A stretch of DNA of 64,000 bases from Gammaproteobacteria bacterium (GTDB lineage: Bacteria > Pseudomonadota > Gammaproteobacteria > SZUA-229), in contig JAPHSS010000020.1 in assembly GCA_026195255.1 (NCBI GenBank), positions 50,887-114,886 of the forward strand, read 5' to 3'. Both the position numbers and the translations under genes were made by a program. Every line of letters begins with the position of its first letter. Position 1 is the stretch's first letter. The notes below the pieces were generated by a model, which saw nothing but the letters and a program-made list of their open reading frames with translations, was not told the DNA's origin and ran no database searches. Shown here piece after piece: positions 10,743 through 32,749 of the stretch.

Positions 10743-11360
10743 GTGGATCTATTACAACAACCCATTATACTTATATTTGGCTTTGCGCTGTTCGGCTATT
10801 TACTCGGCTCAGTATCCACTGCCATTGTAACTTGTAAAATAATGGGATTGTCCGATCCTAGAACGGTTGGTTCAAACAACCCCGGCGCTACCAACGTACT
10901 GCGAGAAGGCGGCAAAAAAGCCGCCATCATCACACTTCTTGGGGATATGTTAAAAGGCCTGATTCCCGTTTCGATAGCCGTTGCGCTGGATATGCAGGAT
11001 GAAGTTATTGCTGCAACCGCTGTAGCGGCATTTTTAGGACACCTATATCCTCTTTATTATGGATTTAAAGGTGGTAAAGGCGTAGCAACAATACTAGGTA
11101 CATTACTTGGTATTCACTGGATGTTAGGGCTAGGCACTATCGGTATCTGGTTATTTATGGCGCTATCCTTACGTTATTCTTCACTATCGGCTCTGGTTGC
11201 CGCCGCAGGTTCACCTGTTTTAGCCTGGTTTATTATGCAGTCTACGGTTATAACGGTTTGCGTGGCTTTTATGGCAGCAATGTTGATCTGGCGGCATAAA
11301 AGTAATATCAAAAAGTTACTCGCGGGCGAAGAAGATAAAATCGGCGCAAAGAAAAAATAA
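10743..11360 (+). CDS. plsY: Glycerol-3-phosphate acyltransferase PlsY
   Basis: GSNNPGATNVLR motif and multiple TM helices over about 200 aa. Confidence 0.85.
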   Translation: MDLLQQPIILIFGFALFGYLLGSVSTAIVTCKIMGLSDPRTVGSNNPGATNVLREGGKKAAIITLLGDMLKGLIPVSIAVALDMQDEVIAATAVAAFLGHLYPLYYGFKGGKGVATILGTLLGIHWMLGLGTIGIWLFMALSLRYSSLSALVAAAGSPVLAWFIMQSTVITVCVAFMAAMLIWRHKSNIKKLLAGEEDKIGAKKK

Positions 11361-11383
11361 ACAGCTTGCCCTGCCCTGCCCTG

Positions 11384-11566
11384 GCACATCTCCATCGGGG
11401 AAAGGTCTCGTTTTTTGAGCCCTGTCCCCTAAACCCATACCACCAGAAGCTGACAGTGTAGGGTGTCGACTCCGTAAAACTCTTAGTGGTATGGGTTTAG
11501 GGGACAGAGCGCCAAACAGCGGCGGTCTTTCCCCGATGGAGATGTGCCTGAGCAGTGCAATGAATA
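11384..11566. repeat. Roughly 180-bp structured palindromic intergenic repeat, copy 1 (nested inverted repeats, MITE/REP-like)
   Basis: The outer 22-bp perfect inverted repeat GGCACATCTCCATCGGGGAAAG / CTTTCCCCGATGGAGATGTGCC encloses an inner 21-bp inverted repeat CCTGTCCCCTAAACCCATACC / GGTATGGGTTTAGGGGACAG. A second copy lies at 30100-30280. Confidence 0.8.
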
Positions 11567-11573
11567 GCTCCAC

Positions 11574-12611
11574 TCAATTAATCGCTGCCAACTCACTCAT
11601 CGGCCATCTTGCTCTCACATTAACGGCCAACGGCTCCACTTCTCCTGCCTGAAGTCGCAAAGCGCCTGCATAGGCAATCATCGCACCATTGTCAGTGCAA
11701 AATTCAATTCGCGGATAAAACAGCTCTCCACCTTCTTTTTCCATCATTGCCCGTAATGATGCCCGTAATCGCAGGTTAGCTCCAACCCCGCCAGCTATCA
11801 CCAGTGTTTTGGCGCCTACCTGCTGAATAGCTCTACGACACTTAATCATTAACGTATCAACTACAGCCTCTTCAAAAGCCCGACAAATATTGGCCTGTGT
11901 CTGCTCATTGTCATTACCCAGCTCAACTTCTTTTTGCCATGTATTCAGGCTGAAGGTTTTCAAACCACTAAAACTAAAGTCCAGGCCCGGTCGATCACAC
12001 ATTGGACGTGGAAACTTATAAATGCCCGTCTCGCCCTGCTCAGCTAATTTAGCCAGAACTGGCCCGCCGGGATAACCCAGCCCCAACATTTTTGCAGTTT
12101 TATCAAAAGCCTCTCCCGCGGCATCATCCAGACTCTCACCTAACAGTTCATATTGACCAACGCCTTTAACTTCCGCCAGCAATGTATGCCCTCCAGAAAC
12201 CAGCAGGGCCACAAAAGGAAACGCAGGTGCCTCATTTTCTAACATAGGCGCCAACAAATGCCCTTCCATATGATGCACCGCTACAGCAGGCACTCCTAAC
12301 GCCATTGCCATTGCCCTTCCAGTACAGGCTCCCACCATTAATGCGCCCATCAAACCAGGGCCTGCGGTATATGCAATACCATCCAGTTCTGTTTTTGCTA
12401 TCCCTGCTTTCTGTAAAACCTGCCTGGCTAAAGGCAATAAATATCGCACATGGTCACGCGATGCCAGCTCCGGAACGACACCACCATACTCACCGTGCAA
12501 AGCAATTTGTGAATGTAAAACGTGAGCCAATAGCCCTCGCTCTGTGTCATACACCGCCAATCCTGTTTCATCACAGGAGGATTCAATACCTAAAACGATC
12601 ATTCTTAACAA
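11574..12611 (-). CDS. tsaD: tRNA N6-adenosine threonylcarbamoyltransferase TsaD
   Basis: [23 protein letters not shown]-terminus with the Kae1/YgjD signature. Divergent from rpsU. Confidence 0.9.
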
Positions 12612-13567: not shown

Positions 13568-14635
13568 ATGACAGAACTAAAAAACGATCGTTTTCTTCGC
13601 GCCCTACTAAAACAACCAGTAGACAAAACACCTGTCTGGATAATGCGTCAGGCAGGCAGATACTTACCTGAATATCGCGCAACCCGTGAACAGGCGGGCG
13701 ACTTTATGAGCCTGTGCATGAATCCAGATCTGGCTTGTGAAGTAACCATGCAGCCTTTAAGGCGCTTCGATCTTGATGCGGCTATCTTATTTTCAGATAT
13801 TCTAACCATTCCTGATGCGATGGGCCTGGGTTTATACTTTGAAACCGGTGAAGGCCCCAAGTTTTCGAACCCAATTCGCTCTGCGGCCGACGTTAAAAAT
13901 TTACCCATTCCTGACCCGGAAGGCGAACTTAAATATGTTATGGATGCAGTTCGCACCATACGTCGAGAATTAAACGGCGACGTACCTTTAATTGGTTTTT
14001 CTGGAAGCCCATGGACGCTGGCGACTTATATGATAGAGGGTGGCAGCAGCAAAACCTTTAGCAAATCCAAAACCATGTTATTTGATGACCCTGCTCTGGC
14101 CCACCAACTATTAGGCAAAATTGCAGAGTCAGTAACCAGTTACCTGAATGCACAAATTGCGGCGGGTGCACAGGCCGTGATGATTTTTGATACCTGGGGC
14201 GGCAACCTGAACCCTGAAATGTATCGTTTATTTTCATTAGATTACATGCAAAAAATTGTATCAAACCTGACCCGCGAAGCAGACGGCAGAGAAGTACCCA
14301 TTATTTTATATACCAAGGGCGGCGGCCAATGGTTAAACATCATGGCCGATACTGGATGTAACGCCCTGGGCATAGACTGGAGCACCAGTATTGCTGATGC
14401 AAAAGCTGCCGTCGGTGATCGTGTTGCCATACAGGGCAATATGGACCCTACTACTTTATATGCATCCCCTGAAATTATTCGCGAAGAAGCTGGAAAAATC
14501 CTTAAAGATTTTGGCACCGGCGAAGGCCATGTGTTTAATTTAGGTCACGGCATAACACCTGACATCAATCCAGAGCACGTTAAAGTTCTGGTCGACTCAG
14601 TTCATGAATTAAGTGAGCAGTATCATAAAACATAG
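13568..14635 (+). CDS. hemE: Uroporphyrinogen decarboxylase HemE
   Basis: [35 protein letters not shown] is the HemE signature. The ORF track opens at 13544, but the ATG at 13568 fits the family N-terminus. Confidence 0.9.
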
Positions 14636-14747
14636 TCGTAAGTCATAAGTCATAAGTCAAAGCAGGCCCCCTAAGGTGAGCCTGCTTTTTTTTGTCTTTG
14701 ACTTTGTTTTTTGACTTACGACTTATGACTTACGACTTATTTTTTAG
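14636..14747. terminator. Rho-independent terminator (GCAGGCCCCCTAAGGTGAGCCTGC followed by T8) embedded in a roughly 110-bp palindrome built from TAAGTCA-type heptamer repeats
   Basis: Left arm GTCGTAAGTCATAAGTCATAAGTCAAAG; right arm CTTTGACTT..TTGACTTACGACTTATGACTTACGAC; central GC hairpin plus a poly-T run. Confidence 0.7.
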
Positions 14748-20456: not shown

Positions 20457-20652
20457 AAAACGCGAATGAACGCTAATAAACGCAAATGCACGCTAAATTA
20501 ATTTTACGTACATAATAGTGTTGCCATTTCTGGATAATTGCTTCGGAAATCTAACGCCACTTAAAAGAATAAGTCCCCGACGCATTCGGGGAGAACAACA
20601 CGATATATATTGATTTGCGTTTATTTACGGTTATTTGCGTTCATTTGCGTTA
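20457..20652. repeat. Structured gltB-gltD intergenic element: two inverted arrays of four 10-bp direct repeats (consensus yATTTGCGTT) flanking a roughly 115-bp core that contains a GC hairpin
   Basis: Left array, read on the minus strand: ATTTAGCGTG CATTTGCGTT TATTAGCGTT CATTCGCGTT. Right array: GATTTGCGTT TATTTACGGT TATTTGCGTT CATTTGCGTT. Core hairpin GTCCCCGACGCATTCGGGGAG at about 20573-20593. Confidence 0.6.
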
Positions 20653-20685: not shown

Positions 20686-22134
20686 ATGGGTAAGATTACA
20701 GGTTTTAAAGAATTCGAACGCAAGACTGCACCTTATCGTGACGTAACTGAACGTCTGAAAGATTTTGGTGAAATCTATACCGAACATGATAACCAGCACC
20801 TGATTACACAGGGCGCACGTTGCATGGATTGTGGCATTCCTTTCTGTCAGTCAGATGATGGCTGCCCGGTTGATAATCTAATTCCTGAATGGAACGATCT
20901 GGTTTACAACAATCGCTGGCAAGATGCTAACGAACGTTTACATCACACTAATAACTTTCCTGAATTCACTGGCCGTGTCTGTCCCGCGCCCTGTGAAGGC
21001 TCATGTGTATTAGGTATAAACAGTCCTGCCGTAACTATTAAAAACATTGAATGTGCAATTGTAGACCGTGCATTTGATGAAGGATGGATTACCGCTCAAG
21101 CGCCAGCAACTCGTAGCAGTAAAAAAGTAGCCGTTGTAGGCTCTGGCCCTGCAGGTATGGCGGCAGCACAGGAATTAAACCGGGCAGGTCATACGGTTAC
21201 TGTTTATGAACGCGCTGACCGCATTGGCGGCCTGTTAATGTACGGCATACCCAACATGAAACTCGACAAAAGTATTATTGATCGCCGGGTTCAGTTAATG
21301 AAAGACGAAGGCATTGAATTTAAAACAAATGCTGATGTTGGTAACAATATTGATATAAAAGAATTAAAACAAAACACTGATGCCATTTTATTTGCAACGG
21401 GCGCAACCACACCCCGAGATTTACCCGTAGATGGTCGTGATTTAAATGGCGTTCACTTCGCAATGGATTTTCTGACTGCAAACACAAAAAGCCTGTTAGA
21501 TTCAAATCTTCAAGACGATAACTATATTAGCGCTAAAGACAAACATGTTGTTGTTATTGGTGGTGGAGATACCGGTACTGACTGTATCGGCACCTCATTA
21601 CGCCACGGCTGCAAATCTGTTGTTAACTTCGAGTTAATGCCAGTACCGCCTGAGGCTCGTGCTGAAAACAATCCGTGGCCCGCCTGGCCTCACATCTACC
21701 GTGTAGACTATGGCCACGAAGAAGCAAAAAAAGTACAGGGAGAAGACCCTCGCACTTACTGTGTACTGAGCAAAGGTTTTACAGGCACTGACGGAAACGT
21801 TTCTAGCGTTAAAACTATTGAAGTTGAGTGGCATAGCGATGAAGAGACCGGCCAATGGAAAATGCAGGAAGTTGCTGGCTCTGAAAAAGAATGGCCAGCT
21901 GATTTAGTATTACTGGCAATGGGTTTTCTGGGTCCAGAACACTATGTAAGTGATGCGCTAGAAATTGAATATGATGAGCGTTCAAACTACAAAGCTGAAT
22001 ATGGAAAGTACGCCACCAGTATAGAGGGTGTTTATGCAGCAGGTGATTGCCGTCGCGGACAGTCTTTAGTTGTTTGGGGAATCAATGAAGGTCGCCAGGC
22101 AGCTGCCGAAATAGATCAGTTTCTGATCAGCTAA
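20686..22134 (+). CDS. gltD: Glutamate synthase small subunit GltD
   Basis: Fe-S cysteine clusters ([18 protein letters not shown]) and the FAD/NAD(P) dinucleotide fold [14 protein letters not shown]. Start chosen at the ATG at 20686, after an RBS. Confidence 0.9.
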
Positions 22135-22140
22135 ACCTTA

Positions 22141-22186
22141 AAAATAACTGTAGGGTGATCCCGGAATACGCCCTACAGTTATTTTC
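22141..22186. terminator. Bidirectional terminator hairpin between the convergent gltD and substrate-binding-protein genes
   Basis: AACTGTAGGG, a 15-nt loop, then CCCTACAGTT, with A/T runs on both sides. Confidence 0.6.
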
Positions 22187-22210
22187 GATTACTTTAAAGC
22201 TTTAGTTTAC

Positions 22211-23167
22211 CTAAAAGCTTTTAATTTCTAGCTCACTCTCTGTCGCAGGAACGAACGCATAGGATGCATATATTTTTTGCGCATCAGGCGTTGCCAGGTA
22301 TTTTAAAAAAACTTTTGCATTCTCTTTATTTCTAGCTTTATTCATTATACCAATAGCGTATGCAACCTTATCTTGCTTGTTGTAAGGCGCCTTAATTGCC
22401 ACACCATCAATTTTACGTCCCTCAGCTTTTGCATGCGCAACTTCTGAGGTCCAGACTATACCCACATCTGCCTGGTTGTTTTCTATACGATATGGCGTTT
22501 CACGGTGATGACGCTCAGTAAACCAGGTTTTCTGTGGCACCGCCCAGCATTTTTTGCATTTCTTATCTGCCGTTACCTTTTCATAAATACCCAGGTCTTT
22601 TAACATTTCACTACCATAAAATTTAAAAATACCTTCTGTTAAAGGATTTGGGTGTGACTGCACAAGATCATCTCTACCTAAATCTTCGGCGCCCTTTATG
22701 TTTTTGGGGTTACCCTCCGCCACCATTAACTCAAGTTTATTATGTGTATAAATTATATAGTTATTAAGCAAGCCTTTTTTATTTAACTTTTTAAGATGAT
22801 TTATATTTACACTTGCATATAAGTCAGGTGTCATAGATGTTTTTGCTCCATTTATTTTACCCTGCTTTAATAATTGCTTTTTTAAAATCTGTCCCGGCGG
22901 AATTGTTTCAACATAAACTGTTTTAATATTCTGGTTCTTTGATTGGAAGTCCTTTATCAACTCTTCCATAACCATGAACTGATTACCTGCCAGATACATA
23001 ACCAGATCTGAGTCGTATGAATCTTTTATATTGCCATAACCTATATCACCATTAACATTAAAGGTTCTATAGTCATGACCATGACCAGCGTCTTTTGCAC
23101 TAACCATTGACGAAAGCATTAACAACAATAATGTAGTAAACATATTTAATACGGGTTTTTTAATCAT
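22211..23167 (-). CDS. Periplasmic oxyanion-binding protein of the ModA/Sbp (molybdate, tungstate, sulfate/thiosulfate) fold. Orphan: no permease or ATPase gene nearby.
   Basis: Signal peptide. The C-terminal region ADVGIVWTSEV...AKVFLKYLATPDAQKIYASYAFVP resembles the ModA/Sbp/CysP C-lobe. I cannot resolve the subfamily from sequence alone. Confidence 0.55.
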   Translation of the reverse strand: MIKKPVLNMFTTLLLLMLSSMVSAKDAGHGHDYRTFNVNGDIGYGNIKDSYDSDLVMYLAGNQFMVMEELIKDFQSKNQNIKTVYVETIPPGQILKKQLLKQGKINGAKTSMTPDLYASVNINHLKKLNKKGLLNNYIIYTHNKLELMVAEGNPKNIKGAEDLGRDDLVQSHPNPLTEGIFKFYGSEMLKDLGIYEKVTADKKCKKCWAVPQKTWFTERHHRETPYRIENNQADVGIVWTSEVAHAKAEGRKIDGVAIKAPYNKQDKVAYAIGIMNKARNKENAKVFLKYLATPDAQKIYASYAFVPATESELEIKSF

Positions 23168-28198: not shown

Positions 28199-28332
28199 CA
28201 GCTCAGCCAGTAATAAATATTATTCGTTAGAAAGCCATAATACAGACACATAATTAAAACATATCAGCTTATTAACCTCCCCTGGTTAACAAAAACTCTG
28301 TGTTATGTTCGCCTCTGTGGCAAAATAGCCAC

Positions 28333-30078
28333 ATGGCTGGCCGTATACCTCAACAATTCATTGACGACCTTATCAATCGTGCTGACATAGTCGACGTTGT
28401 AGACTCACGTGTCGCCTTAAAAAAGCGCGGCAAAGAACATATTGCCTGCTGCCCTTTCCATAATGAAAAAAGCCCTTCTTTTACTGTTAGTCAAAGTAAG
28501 CAGTTTTATCATTGTTTTGGCTGTGGAGCCCATGGCACTGCACTTGGCTTCATAATGGAGTACGAGCGTCTTGACTTTGTAGATGCCATTGAAGTACTTG
28601 CCGCTGAGTACCATATCGACGTACCTCGTGAACAGGGCAGTTTTAACCCCCAGCAAGATGACAAAAAACCACTCTATGAAATTTTAGAAAAAGCCTCTCT
28701 TAATTTCGCAAATGAATTAAAAAAAACACCTCGTGCGGTAGAATATTTAAAACAGCGCGGCTTAAGTGGTGAAATTGCAAAAGACTTTCAAATGGGTTAC
28801 GCACCTGATAGCTGGGATTTCACACTAGGGCAACCAGGCCTGAGTAAAGAAGATAAAACTGCCTGCCTAAAGTCAGGTTTGAGCATCGAAAAAAGCCCTC
28901 AGAAACATTACGACCGTTTTCGTGACCGTATAATGTTTCCTATACGAGACCGACGCGGTCGTACAATTGGCTTTGGTGGCCGCATACTGGATAAGGGAGA
29001 GCCCAAATATTTAAACTCCCCTGAAACCCCGGTATTTCATAAAGGCGAAGAGTTATATGGCTTATATGAAGCAAGGCAATCAGTAAAAGACTTAAAACGG
29101 ATTGTCATTGTTGAAGGTTATATGGACGTTGTTGCACTTGCACAACATGGAATCAAATATGCGGTAGCCACCCTGGGAACGGCTACTTCAGAAACACAGA
29201 TATCCAAACTGTCTCGCATCGTTCCTGAATTAATTTTTTGTTATGATGGTGATGCGGCAGGAAAAAAAGCAGCCTGGCGAGCATTAGAAAATTCACTCTC
29301 TGTATTACGAGATGGTATACAGGCAAGATTTTTATTCTTACCAGATGGAGAAGACCCTGACACCCTGGTCAGGCAAGAAGGGCAACAGGCTTTCGAACAA
29401 CGTTTAAGTAATGCGACACCTCTCTCAGATTTTATGTTGCAACATTTATCAGAAGATCTGGATTTATCTTCTGCCGATGGTTGTGGTCGACTTTCAGAAA
29501 AGGCCAAACCCTTAATTAGTAAAATTGAAGATGGTGTATTTAAAGACCTGTTAGTTAATCAACTTTCAAAAATGATTGGTTTATCCAGTTCCAGCCTGCA
29601 ACAACACATCCCCGAGTCGAAAAACAAAACACAAACTCCGCACTACAATAACAGAGCAGTGTCTGCAAAACACCAGATCAGCATGACCCCTACCCGTCTT
29701 GCCATTGCGCTATTATTACAACACCCGTCACTTGCAAAAGAGTGTGAAATTCCCGAACAACTTTTATCCTCTGATATGCCGGGTTTAAAACTGCTAATAC
29801 AAATACACAAAACAATATTACAAACAGATGCAATCTCACCTTCGGTTTTAGTTGAACGCTGGCGAGACACTATTGACGCACCTGTTATTAATAAACTTAT
29901 GCAACTAGATATACCTGAAGCGAAGAAAGATACGCAACTCGCATCTTTAAAAGATGCTTTTAAGAATCTGCTGCAAAAACACAAAGACGAACGCCTACAG
30001 GAATTACTAAACAAAAGCCGCACATCTGAATTAAGCTCAGATGAAAAAAGTGAATTAAGCCAGCTTTATCAGAGCTAA
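28333..30078 (+). CDS. dnaG: DNA primase DnaG
   Basis: MAGRIPQQFIDDLINRADIVDVV N-terminus, a CHC2 zinc finger (CCPFHNEKSPSF…CFGCGAHG), the TOPRIM domain, and a C-terminal DnaB-interaction domain. Confidence 0.9.
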   Translation: MAGRIPQQFIDDLINRADIVDVVDSRVALKKRGKEHIACCPFHNEKSPSFTVSQSKQFYHCFGCGAHGTALGFIMEYERLDFVDAIEVLAAEYHIDVPREQGSFNPQQDDKKPLYEILEKASLNFANELKKTPRAVEYLKQRGLSGEIAKDFQMGYAPDSWDFTLGQPGLSKEDKTACLKSGLSIEKSPQKHYDRFRDRIMFPIRDRRGRTIGFGGRILDKGEPKYLNSPETPVFHKGEELYGLYEARQSVKDLKRIVIVEGYMDVVALAQHGIKYAVATLGTATSETQISKLSRIVPELIFCYDGDAAGKKAAWRALENSLSVLRDGIQARFLFLPDGEDPDTLVRQEGQQAFEQRLSNATPLSDFMLQHLSEDLDLSSADGCGRLSEKAKPLISKIEDGVFKDLLVNQLSKMIGLSSSSLQQHIPESKNKTQTPHYNNRAVSAKHQISMTPTRLAIALLLQHPSLAKECEIPEQLLSSDMPGLKLLIQIHKTILQTDAISPSVLVERWRDTIDAPVINKLMQLDIPEAKKDTQLASLKDAFKNLLQKHKDERLQELLNKSRTSELSSDEKSELSQLYQS

Positions 30079-30099
30079 TTTAATACTCGCTAACCAATG

Positions 30100-30280
30100 A
30101 ACATCTCCCTCGGGGAAAGGTCGACGTTTTTTTTGCGCCCTGTCCCCTTATTGATGCCATCAAGAGTTTTACGGAGTCGAATCGCTATCCTGTCAGCTCT
30201 TGATGGTATGGGCTTAGGGGACAGGGCTTAAAAAACAAGACCTTTCCCCGAGGGCTGTGCACCTGAACAGTGCAATCTCT
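30100..30280. repeat. Roughly 180-bp structured palindromic intergenic repeat, copy 2, with the central core inverted relative to copy 1
   Basis: ACATCTCCCTCGGGGAAAGGTC … CCCTGTCCCCTT … GGTATGGGCTTAGGGGACAG … GACCTTTCCCCGAGGG … CCTGAACAGTGCAAT. The core AAGAGTTTTACGGAGTCGA…TGTCAGC is the reverse complement of the copy-1 core. Confidence 0.8.
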
Positions 30281-30356
30281 TTCAGCTCATAACAATCTGT
30301 TGTTCGTCTCGTTTACACGGTTCTGCGTGGGAACAAGATGCGGTTAGATAATATAT

Positions 30357-31253
30357 TTATCTGCCTCTCGCCAGAACAGTTACGCCACTAATAACCAGAA
30401 CAATGCCAACTGCATGAAATAATGTAAAAGGCTCATTCAAAAACCATATCGCCAACACAATTGTTACCATGGGGCCTAATGTCCCGATAACTCCCGTTTG
30501 TGCCGGCCCAATTTTTGCTATTGACTCGGCTATCATAAAACTTGGAATAACCGTGCTGAAAACAGCTAGTAATAAAATCCATAACCAGGCTAACCAGCTC
30601 ACGGTTAATGCACTGTAATCTAAAAACAGCGCGTAATAAATTAATACAAATACACTGGAAACAATCATTGCAATACTTGTGAACCACAAACTGCCCACCT
30701 TATGAATCACTTTTTTACCCACTAATACATATATAGAAAAGCTAAGTGCCGCAAAAAAAACAAGTAACGTACCTAATACAACATTTTCACCTGATAAGGA
30801 CGACTCTTGATAAAACACAATCCACACACCGGCATAAGTTATAAGAAGTGCTGTAATAATATTTTTTGTTAACGGTGTTTTAAAAAATATTGCACCGAGT
30901 AAAGCGACTAAAATGGGATAACTGAAAAGCGTTAACCTTTCAAGCTGTGCTGATATGTACTCCAGACCCTTTAAATCTAACCATGAAGACAAGAAGTAAC
31001 CGATAAACCCTAGAAATATAATTTTACCTATATTTTCACCAAGGCACACTGGAAGAGAATCAGATCGTCGAATTAACCATATCAGTATTAATAGATATAT
31101 CGGCAAGGAAATAGCCATGCGTAACATCAATACACTATCTGCATTCAGGCCTTCCAGATAGGCTAGCTTTATGAATATCGATTTGAGAGAAAACAGGGCT
31201 GTTCCCAGAATAGCTAAAAGGAAGCCAGTGGCCCTGGGGGATAGTGATAACAT
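30357..31253 (-). CDS. EamA/DMT-family transporter with 10 TM helices
   Basis: Two EamA-like repeats with multiple hydrophobic helices over 298 aa. Confidence 0.65.
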   Translation of the reverse strand: MLSLSPRATGFLLAILGTALFSLKSIFIKLAYLEGLNADSVLMLRMAISLPIYLLILIWLIRRSDSLPVCLGENIGKIIFLGFIGYFLSSWLDLKGLEYISAQLERLTLFSYPILVALLGAIFFKTPLTKNIITALLITYAGVWIVFYQESSLSGENVVLGTLLVFFAALSFSIYVLVGKKVIHKVGSLWFTSIAMIVSSVFVLIYYALFLDYSALTVSWLAWLWILLLAVFSTVIPSFMIAESIAKIGPAQTGVIGTLGPMVTIVLAIWFLNEPFTLFHAVGIVLVISGVTVLARGR

Positions 31254-31398: not shown

Positions 31399-31466
31399 CC
31401 GCACTGAGGAGCGCTGCAGCAGATCTCTCTGTCAGGCTTAGTGCATCTTTTTTAAACGGCGCTCAT
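31399..31466 (+). ncRNA. Probable S-adenosylhomocysteine (SAH) riboswitch in the metK leader
   Basis: GCACUGAGGAGCGCUGCAGC … GUCAGGCUUAGUGC … AACGGCGCUCA. A P1 helix (GCACU/AGUGC), the GAGGAGCGCUGC and CAGGCU cores, and a 3' ACGGCGCUC element that could pair with GAGCGC in a pseudoknot all match the SAH-element consensus as I recall it. A TATAAT -10 lies at 31386-31391. Confidence 0.55.
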
Positions 31467-31588
31467 TTATTAGTTTCTAGTTTGGCTAAAAATGAGCACG
31501 GATCTAAAATCGGCATAATCTGCCACTACAAGATTCACTCATATGGCTTTATTAGCGCTGCTAGTATTTGTATCGAGGAATTGTAAAC

Positions 31589-32749
31589 ATGTCAAAAAGT
31601 CACCTATTTACATCTGAATCCGTATCAGAAGGACATCCTGATAAGGTTGCTGATCAGATATCGGACGCTATCCTGGATGGTATTTTTCAACAGGATCCGA
31701 AAGCACGTGTAGCTTGTGAAACACTTATTAACACCGGTATGGTTGTTTTATCAGGCGAGATAACCACTGAAGCATGGGTCGATATGCAGCAAATTGTGCG
31801 CGATACTGTGCGAAATATTGGTTATACCAGCTCCGAAATGGGCTTTGATGCTGATTCCTGTGCAGTTATCACCTCTATCGACAAACAGTCTCCTGATATT
31901 GCTATGGGCGTTAATGAGGGAGAAGACCACGAGCAAGGTGCTGGTGATCAGGGTCTTATGTTTGGTTATGCCTGTAATGAAACAGACGTACTTATGCCTG
32001 CACCGATTACTTATGCGCATAAACTCGTTAGACGTCAGGCAGAAGTGCGTAAAAATGGCACATTAAACTGGTTACGCCCGGATGCTAAAAGTCAGGTTAC
32101 TTTCCGTTATGAAGATGGCGTTCCTGCAGGCATTGAGGCGGTTGTTTTATCAACACAACATTCTCCTGATATCAGCCTGAGCGCACTGCGTGAAGCCGTT
32201 ATGGATGAAATTATTAAGCCAGTATTGCCGGCTGAGCTAATCAGTAAAGACACTAAATATCATATCAACCCAACGGGTAACTTCGTTATTGGTGGCCCTG
32301 TTGGTGACTGTGGTTTAACTGGCCGTAAAATCATTGTTGATACTTACGGCGGTATGGCGCGTCACGGTGGTGGTGCCTTCTCTGGTAAAGACCCCTCAAA
32401 AGTCGATCGCTCTGCTGCTTATGCTGGTCGTTATGTTGCAAAGAATATTGTTGCCGCTGGTCTGGCTGACAAATGTGAAATTCAGGTTTCGTACGCAATC
32501 GGTGTTGCCGAGCCTACCTCTATTTCTATTGAAACATTCGGCACAGGCAAAATTGATGATAGCCGCATTGAAGAACTGGTACGCGAACATTTCAACCTCA
32601 AACCAAAAGGCCTTATTCAAATGCTTGATCTATTGCGCCCAATCTACGCAAATACAGCAGCTTATGGTCATTTTGGCAGAACTGAAGATAACTTTACCTG
32701 GGAACGTACAGATAAAGCAGCAGCACTAAAAGACGCAGCTGGTATTTAA
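31589..32749 (+). CDS. metK: S-adenosylmethionine synthetase MetK
   Basis: [30 protein letters not shown], plus the GAGDQG and GGGAFSGKD motifs. Start chosen at the ATG at 31589. Confidence 0.95.

Follow-up and report, generated by a model that had tools for sequence, protein, structure and literature searches.

A dispersed family of palindromic intergenic repeats in uncultured Gammaproteobacteria, with copies beside plsY/tsaD and dnaG

Relation to described palindromic repeats

ERIC (IRU) sequences of Enterobacteriaceae and Vibrio are 127-bp imperfect palindromes for which we know of no transposase. The ~190-bp element analysed here, present in two copies in a 64-kb stretch of gammaproteobacterial DNA (hereafter the window), shares with ERIC the form of a 100–200-bp imperfect palindrome, a location in transcribed intergenic DNA in either orientation, internal insertion and deletion variants, and conservation at orthologous sites. 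It differs in being longer, in carrying a side hairpin in each arm and in its host clade, and whereas ERIC reportedly inserts at TA, no duplication is detectable around the new element, which to our knowledge does not resemble the ERIC consensus. Correia elements, also called NEMIS, of Neisseria are marked by a TA duplication, by an IHF site at the centre and by promoters facing outward. The new element is similar to them in its terminal inverted repeats, in its size (100–155 bp for Correia/NEMIS) and in the long hairpin formed upon co-transcription with neighbouring genes, but the IHF consensus WATCARNNNNTTR occurs in it only at chance level (2 of 131 copies versus 1.5 in shuffled sequences), no sigma-70-like promoter sites were found in or beside either window copy, and duplications are again not detectable.

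REP palindromes are described as ending on one side in a tag, GTAG or CGTC, that stays unpaired (PMC3733652). REP/REPIN-RAYT systems (PMC3733652; PMC3116915; bioRxiv 10.1101/2021.07.10.451892) resemble the new element in forming inverted hairpin doublets, in having free singlets, in leaving no target-site duplication, in lying at gene 3′ ends and in persisting vertically. The units of the new element are, in contrast, ~95 nt rather than 20–40 nt long, and RAYT was not found in 1.5 Mb of copy-rich DNA. Neither GTAG nor CGTC stands as a tag at the hairpin foot or the element end; the sole conserved GTAG is in the apical loop (CAGTGTAG), 40 nt from a side hairpin. The MITEs of Ca. Thiomargarita nelsonii show clear direct repeats, either of 10 bp or of the sequence TATAG, and lie inserted within genes and introns (PMC4853749); they nevertheless share with the new element the ability to form hairpins, a mostly intergenic location, the absence of an identified parent IS and a home in sulfur-oxidising Gammaproteobacteria (PMC4853749). 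The diagnostic G4 motifs of the new family were not found in the supplementary sequences of that study, and a 13-nt match to one of its dsrA PCR primers was treated as coincidence. Bidirectional intrinsic terminators, finally, also occupy convergent gene gaps, and at three orthologous sites one relative has a terminator where another has the element, but the stem of the new element is ~10 times longer and has no adjoining U-tract.

Overall, the behaviour of the element comes closest to that of ERIC and REP/REPIN, and in outline it looks like Correia elements and MITEs. A first-pass annotation of this DNA, made from sequence alone, had likened it to small MITE/REP/ERIC/Correia-type elements; the likeness holds for the intergenic position at gene 3′ ends, the occurrence in either orientation and the hairpin, but membership in any named family is not supported. 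Because the element fails the tested defining features of MITEs, REPINs and Correia elements, it is a previously undescribed family within the general kind of bacterial interspersed palindromic intergenic repeats. Among its less common traits are side hairpins that covary, a core that can be inverted and evident purifying constraint.

Copies in the window and the wider family

Copy 1 occupies positions 11366–11560 (nhmmer match 11373–11559, E = 1e-58), with the asymmetric core of the family reading on the plus strand. Its ends, TTGC...GCAA, agree with the family termini TTRCMCTG...CAGKGYAA, and the family-defined boundaries replace the limits of 11384–11566 given in the first-pass annotation. 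The perfect 22-bp outer inverted repeat described there was recovered with 0 mismatches (GGCACATCTCCATCGGGGAAAG at 11383–11404 on the plus strand and 11527–11548 on the minus strand), and no such match arose in 100 shuffles; with mismatches allowed, the outer repeat extends to 33 nt at 91% identity (11372–11404 / 11527–11559). A perfect inner repeat is also present, but it measures 20 bp (11422–11441 / 11488–11507) rather than the 21 bp claimed, the 21st base being mismatched (1 mismatch on the minus strand), and the spacer that it encloses is 46 nt and not 45. The GCCCT pentamer is locally triplicated within the left terminal repeat (11368–11382); this triplication is missing from the orthologue of copy 1 in the MAG N1D-Bin_4, where CAGCTTGC is duplicated just outside the element.

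Copy 1 indeed fills the convergent gap between plsY (glycerol-3-phosphate acyltransferase; 10743–11360, plus strand; Pfam PF02660, E = 2e-53) and tsaD (11574–12611, minus strand; PF00814), which measures 213 nt between the two stop codons. The plsY stop (11358–11360) lies 5 nt ahead of the copy, and the tsaD stop (11574–11576) lies 13 nt beyond it. On the tsaD-sense strand, TTTATTTTTTCTTT, the complement of the terminal plsY Lys codons, comes 4 nt after the copy; hairpin-plus-U termination for tsaD is conceivable at this site, without being a property of the family as a whole. In silico folding, which the first-pass annotation had proposed as a check, placed the RNA of copy 1 far beyond chance on both strands (−119.8 kcal/mol with z = −10.8 versus shuffles for one, −128.3 kcal/mol with z = −13.3 for the other), and the corresponding DNA fold reached −65.6 kcal/mol (z = −11.6).

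Copy 2 lies at 30091–30275 with its core on the minus strand (nhmmer 30091–30274, E = 5e-55). Its approximate parts are outer arms at 30098–30119 / 30242–30275, side hairpins at ~30118–30142 and ~30221–30241, and a central hairpin at 30140–30227, and it continues into a 10-nt terminal extension (30276–30285, TCTCTTTCAG) that is common to some other copies. A near-identical second copy had been announced 18.5 kb away, after dnaG; the copy exists, 18.7 kb off, but its identity to copy 1 is 81% over 155 nt (BLAST) and 76.5% over model columns. The two copies are opposite in orientation, which the asymmetric core shows and the near-symmetric arms mask; an inversion of the core alone was considered and dropped, since it is the whole copies that are oppositely oriented. 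A nhmmer search found no third copy within the 64-kb window.

The stop of dnaG (28300–30078, plus strand; Pfam primase domains) stands ~12–20 nt ahead of copy 2, which occupies the gap between dnaG and a convergent EamA-family transporter gene (30357–31253, minus strand; Pfam PF00892, E = 3e-33). The classical operon order is rpsU-dnaG-rpoD. Here, dnaG has no rpoD downstream and is followed instead by the repeat and the convergent transporter gene (28300–31253), while rpsU lies 15 kb from dnaG in the window and adjoins tsaD.

Beyond the window, the arm pattern TCGGGGAAAG N12-26 CTGTCCCCTWA matched 25 stretches in the one-genome-per-species GTDB collection, of which 21 belong to the MAG 'Gammaproteobacteria bacterium N1D-Bin_4', one to the MAG OB6 and one to an 'uncultured Thiotrichaceae' MAG; the remaining two, in Streptomyces and Pontixanthobacter, were not confirmed by profile search and were discarded as chance matches. 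At least 120 stretches of metagenome contigs matched the same pattern, and JGI projects Ga0316204-09 together with WGS sets of hydrothermal vents accounted for nearly all of the matches listed. Using a profile HMM built from 18 aligned copies, nhmmer identified 221 non-overlapping matches across 1.5 Mb of DNA from related genomes and metagenomes; they are all intergenic, and 140 of them are full-length (~190 bp), representing 131 distinct full-length sequences. For N1D-Bin_4, a sister genome of the one analysed here, a sample of 147 kb contains 34 family matches; synteny with the window runs at 91.5–92.3% identity over 8-kb blocks, and both window copies are found at the same sites in this MAG. 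It is near certain that these sequences constitute a dispersed palindromic repeat family: more than 200 copies with consistent boundaries exist elsewhere, which rejects the case of a genome with two copies only that the first-pass annotation had named as the refutation of its proposal.

The host clade consists of uncultured, marine-type Gammaproteobacteria. A related MAG bears the label Thiotrichaceae, and dsrC is present in relatives. Rfam covariance models gave no match to the element at gathering score and only generic miRNA-hairpin matches at a permissive threshold. BLAST against plasmid and phage collections and a pattern scan of viral contigs gave no match either. Free-standing half units occur at L014, L019, L025 and L008. 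Composite copies, in which the core and inner arm are tandemly duplicated or a truncated copy abuts a full one, are found at L003 (141–361), L018 (6829–7042), L020 (4721–5000) and L031 (11042–11354). With the family profile, these repeats can be masked or labelled when MAGs of the clade are annotated; they probably add to contig breaks in the assemblies.

Consensus, fold and covariation

Read 5′ to 3′, the family consensus comprises TTRCMCTGYTMAGGYACATCTCCMTCGGGGAAAG, side hairpin P2 (GGTC nn GTTTTTT nn GCCC), CTGTCCCCTTAACCCATACCACCAAGAG, CTGACAGTGTAGnGAGTCGACTCCGTAAAA, CTCTTGATGGCATCACAACAGGGGACAG, side hairpin P4 (GGCGCC AAAAAGC GGCGAC) and CTTTCCCCGAKGGAGATGTGCCTKARCAGKGYAA, the terminal inverted repeats being ~33 nt long (TTRCMCTGYTMAGGYACATCTCCMTCGGGGAAAG). 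Each arm thus contains one small self-complementary hairpin, with a T-rich loop in P2 and an A-rich loop in P4. Four near-invariant G4/C4 blocks (GGGGAAAG, CTGTCCCC, GGGGACAG and CTTTCCCC), together with parts of the core, make up the columns that are at least 90% conserved in the 131 copies, and the stems between these blocks covary.

In copy 1, the outer stem P1 is formed by a 5′ arm at 11366–11402 (perfect part 11383–11404) and a 3′ arm at 11529–11560 (perfect repeat 11527–11548), which are the terminal inverted repeats. P2 follows at 11403–11423 (stem 11403–11409 / 11417–11423, loop GTTTTTT at 11410–11416), and P4 lies at 11506–11528 (stem 11506–11513 / 11521–11528, loop AAACAGC). Between them stands the central hairpin P3 (11424–11505; stems 11424–11449 / 11480–11505); the conserved asymmetric core CTGACAGTGTAG...GACTCCGTAAAAC sits in its 30-nt apical loop (11450–11479).

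The consensus fold obtained with RNAalifold has the layout of a four-way junction, made up of P1, the side hairpins P2 and P4, and the central hairpin P3. Its covariation score is 0.162 versus 0.120 in shuffles, and none of 500 shuffles reaches it, whereas the extended-hairpin model, in which the linkers pair with one another, scores 0.108 versus 0.116 in shuffles, of which 427 of 500 reach its score. Compensatory pairs in P2 and P4 are present both in the 18-copy set and in the 131-copy set. Across the 131 copies, P2 pair 55/74 is GC in 64 and AT in 49, side-hairpin pair 59/71 is GC in 49 and TA in 46, P4 pair 163/195 is AT in 95 and GC in 30 with 3 breaks, and side-hairpin pair 166/192 takes five pair types; the matching cross-arm pairs between the linkers are broken in about half of these copies. 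Energy models, in contrast, favour the extended hairpin in 95 (RNA) and 81 (DNA) of the 131 copies, with a median penalty for the branched fold of 8.4 (RNA) and 4.9 (DNA) kcal/mol, although the DNA minimum-energy fold of copy 1 is the four-way junction, P2 and P4 included. Quasi-palindromes can gain compensatory changes through template-switch mutation without selection. We take it that the side hairpins really form, most plausibly first, while the strand is being synthesised; the covariation does not amount to proof of a stable cloverleaf.

Age, genomic placement and candidate roles

Comparison of each window copy with its orthologue in another species gave identities of 92.8% and 93.8% (180/194 and 182/194 positions), against 75.4% (599/794) at four-fold degenerate sites of the flanking genes (p ~1e-10); the copies evolve about four times slower than synonymous sites. 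Other orthologue pairs are 81% to 100% identical, a spread that is due in part to inversions. Within N1D-Bin_4, identity between paralogues reaches 85% at most, with a median of 76%. Concerted evolution was ruled out as the cause of the likeness between orthologues, the paralogues (76%) lying far below the orthologues (93–94%). A likeness of only ~76% between copies of one genome marks the family as old and not recently mobile. The family is under constraint and, apparently, essentially immobile today; the comparisons show or strongly imply that it spread long ago and that its copies have been inherited vertically at fixed sites, decaying by internal deletion.

Every relative with a TsaD at least 90% identical carries the element at the plsY/tsaD site, with one and a half copies in L031, and the site is empty in relatives whose TsaD is 87%, 85%, 80% and 77% identical. 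In the first of these empty relatives (87%), the gap contains a textbook bidirectional terminator, and in the relative at 80% it is 18 nt long. Deletion remnants are present at some 'empty' sites, namely 29 nt of the right end in L049 and a core fragment in L123. Among contigs at least 85% identical, no occupied/empty polymorphism was seen.

Most copies have unlike inner arms, of the 'CCCATACC' type on one side and the 'GATGGCATC' type on the other (54 of the classifiable copies), so that an asymmetric internal loop is conserved. Copy 1 is atypical, as is its orthologue in N1D-Bin_4, in having arms of one type on both sides, in copy 1 the 'CCCATACC' type, and it is for this reason that copy 1 has a perfect 20-bp inner repeat. 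Across relatives, the plsY/tsaD site displays each of the four possible pairings of arm type with core orientation. The copy in contig L028, whose TsaD is 95% identical, and the window copy have in common a private, variable core segment, GGGTGTCGAC, but in opposite orientations with respect to the flanking genes, and a genuine in-place inversion was seen only between orthologues at this site. These arrangements point to inversion of cores in place and to homogenisation of one arm by the other, copy 1 representing a homogenised state. The presence of side hairpins that show compensatory change, an invertible core and arm homogenisation at a single orthologous site makes the family a useful system for studying palindrome evolution. 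Elsewhere, two orthologous copies (L049 4061–4219 and L130 1001–1156) are 100% identical over 156 nt, although their flanks are only 86–91% identical, which suggests that this segment was exchanged recently between lineages by recombination.

Gaps between genes, classified with a simple ORF caller, were compared between the 138 distinct occupied gaps and the unoccupied gaps of the same loci. Occupied gaps are convergent in 72 cases, tandem in 61 and divergent in 5, versus 109, 709 and 184 for unoccupied gaps, so that copies are enriched in convergent gaps (odds ratio 8.9, p = 3e-27) and almost missing from divergent, promoter-containing gaps. In tandem gaps, copy orientation is random relative to the genes (23 vs 19), and the genes beside copies are ordinary housekeeping genes. 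The enrichment at 3′ ends could also do no more than mirror the purging of insertions from promoters. At three sites, a relative without the element holds a canonical bidirectional terminator (A-tract/hairpin/T-tract) in the same gap. A crude hairpin-plus-T-tail scan for separate terminators returned 8% of occupied versus 10% of other gaps, which is no difference, and because of this result the idea that the element replaces terminators rests on those three anecdotal sites. L074 has kept a canonical terminator 45 nt from its copy, and in L028 two further copies stand at places that are taken in the window by terminator-like hairpins (14644–14727 and 22126–22212). The flank composition of the family contains no T-tract or U-tract after the element, and terminator scans of the window copies returned one weak internal match only. 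As a separate observation, the gap between hemE and an NTP-transferase gene (14623–14740) has inverted GTAAGTC / GACTTAC heptamer arrays flanking a bidirectional terminator-like hairpin, AAGCAGGCCCCCTAAGGTGAGCCTGCTTTTTTTT; the same gap in L028 contains the 190-bp element instead.

The reading that best accommodates these data, to which we give somewhat more credence than to its negation, is that the element is an ERIC/REPIN/MITE-like palindromic repeat retained at gene 3′ ends and a probable transcript-end hairpin. Copies are found nearly only where transcription ends, have no orientation or strand preference and evolve slowly; a structural role at transcript 3′ ends is therefore the likeliest. 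In transcripts from either flanking gene, the element would act at the 3′ end, folding into a very stable hairpin or branched structure, with the side hairpins forming first during synthesis and the long stems closing last. So folded, it would block 3′-exonucleases and/or pause, terminate or insulate convergent transcription, while a U-tract and a promoter would not be supplied by the element itself. The functional part of this reading, that the repeat is kept for a transcript fold that shields or defines the 3′ ends of mRNAs and insulates the transcription of convergent genes, is a serious possibility that falls short of an even chance; the roles of terminator or mRNA stabiliser listed in the first-pass annotation are plausible. 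Were the functional part to hold, the family would be a natural example of immobile palindromic repeats preserved by selection at transcript ends, and would bear on whether REP/ERIC-type repeats are parasites or host tools.

A stronger version, which we consider doubtful, is that the element is a palindromic module that has been domesticated and that purifying selection maintains at convergent and tandem gene ends, where it would adopt a branched four-way junction, with G4/C4 junction arms invariant in sequence and side hairpins conserved in structure, and serve as an orientation-independent insulator, a 3′-end protector or a docking site for a structure-specific protein, replacing terminators in some gaps.

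It is unlikely that the element is a classical MITE, that is, a purely selfish non-autonomous transposon mobilised by a DDE transposase in trans and located at 3′ ends because insertions are tolerated there. Its small size, lack of coding capacity, ~33-nt terminal inverted repeats and many dispersed copies in both orientations fit such an origin, as do the differences between lineages in the presence of copies and the frequent ends TA/TG...CA/TA, which are compatible with a palindromic TA duplication. A permutation test for direct repeats of 2–9 nt at any offset in 81 full-length copies found no excess, however, although a self-complementary TA duplication would look like part of the inverted repeat in such a test. 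Target-site duplications, which the first-pass annotation had suggested looking for in the flanks, were likewise not detectable by eye alignment of both ends or in comparisons of occupied and empty sites, the junctions of the latter being blurred by intergenic divergence and deletion remnants. In the 1.5 Mb of copy-rich DNA, Pfam searches of 20 ORFs between or beside copies found no transposase, and no IS sharing the ends of the element was found. The ceiling of 85% identity between paralogues and the missing insertion polymorphism also stand against a MITE, and an evolutionary rate of orthologues about four times below that of four-fold sites is not what dead junk DNA would show.

Less probable still is a REPIN-like origin, in which a RAYT/HUH-type enzyme mobilised two inverted ~95-nt units in the form of single-stranded hairpins, after which they were inherited vertically over long times. 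The undetectable target-site duplication, the hairpins maintained by compensatory change without strand bias, the free-standing half units and the co-location with a classical 24-nt REP-like family all agree with this origin, and the long persistence of copies at orthologous sites matches what is reported for REPINs (bioRxiv 10.1101/2021.07.10.451892; PMC3116915). Against it weigh the unit length and the untagged hairpin foot described above, together with the enzyme searches in 1.5 Mb: a YxxxNP/HUH motif scan for RAYT was negative, and tblastn with E. coli RayT found no homologue, its single weak match being TruA.

The element might alternatively act as a DNA-level site, at which a host protein (a nucleoid protein, gyrase or a structure-specific protein) binds the four GGGGAMAG blocks, or a cruciform or four-way structure is extruded. 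The conservation of the G4/C4 blocks alongside covarying stems, the lack of strand bias and the four-way junction of copy 1 with DNA parameters are in line with this proposal, which we nonetheless judge improbable, since the need for strong stem-closing pairs explains G4/C4 conservation equally well, no candidate protein is known and DNA parameters favour the extended form in most copies (81/131). A gene for a discrete structured small RNA is very improbable. The fold is very stable and its conserved loops accompany covarying stems, but G-U and A-C mismatches are equal in number (69 vs 76) and neither strand is therefore favoured, which also disfavours the 'sRNA source' reading of the first-pass annotation; moreover, promoter-like sites are lacking in and beside the window copies, orientation is random relative to genes, and Rfam gave no match. 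A locally duplicated terminator limited to the two copies that the 64-kb window happens to hold can be practically dismissed given the >200 related copies elsewhere, the 34 matches in 147 kb of N1D-Bin_4 and the missing U-tract after the element.

A second repeat family was observed in the same DNA. Its members are REP-like palindromes of 24 nt with the consensus GTTCCCACGCnGGAGCGTGGGAAC; the 1.5 Mb of related DNA contains 65 of them, often as inverted pairs 40–250 nt apart. A degenerate member lies at 30311–30334 of the window, and others are found in L003, L023, L027, L037 and further loci. Forty-four of the 221 copies of the 190-bp element (~20%) have such a palindrome within 120 nt, forming BIME-like mosaics. 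The window also contains inverted decamer arrays (AAACGCwAAT / ATTTGCGTTT) at 20458–20496 and 20613–20651, ~117 nt apart and around a small hairpin, GTCCCCGACGCATTCGGGGAG; similar decamers flank REP-like hairpins in L037 (11030–11430). Lastly, an SAH riboswitch (RF01057, 58 bits) is located at 31400–31471 (plus strand), upstream of an ORF (31568–32749) that we take, from its translation alone, to be metK-like.
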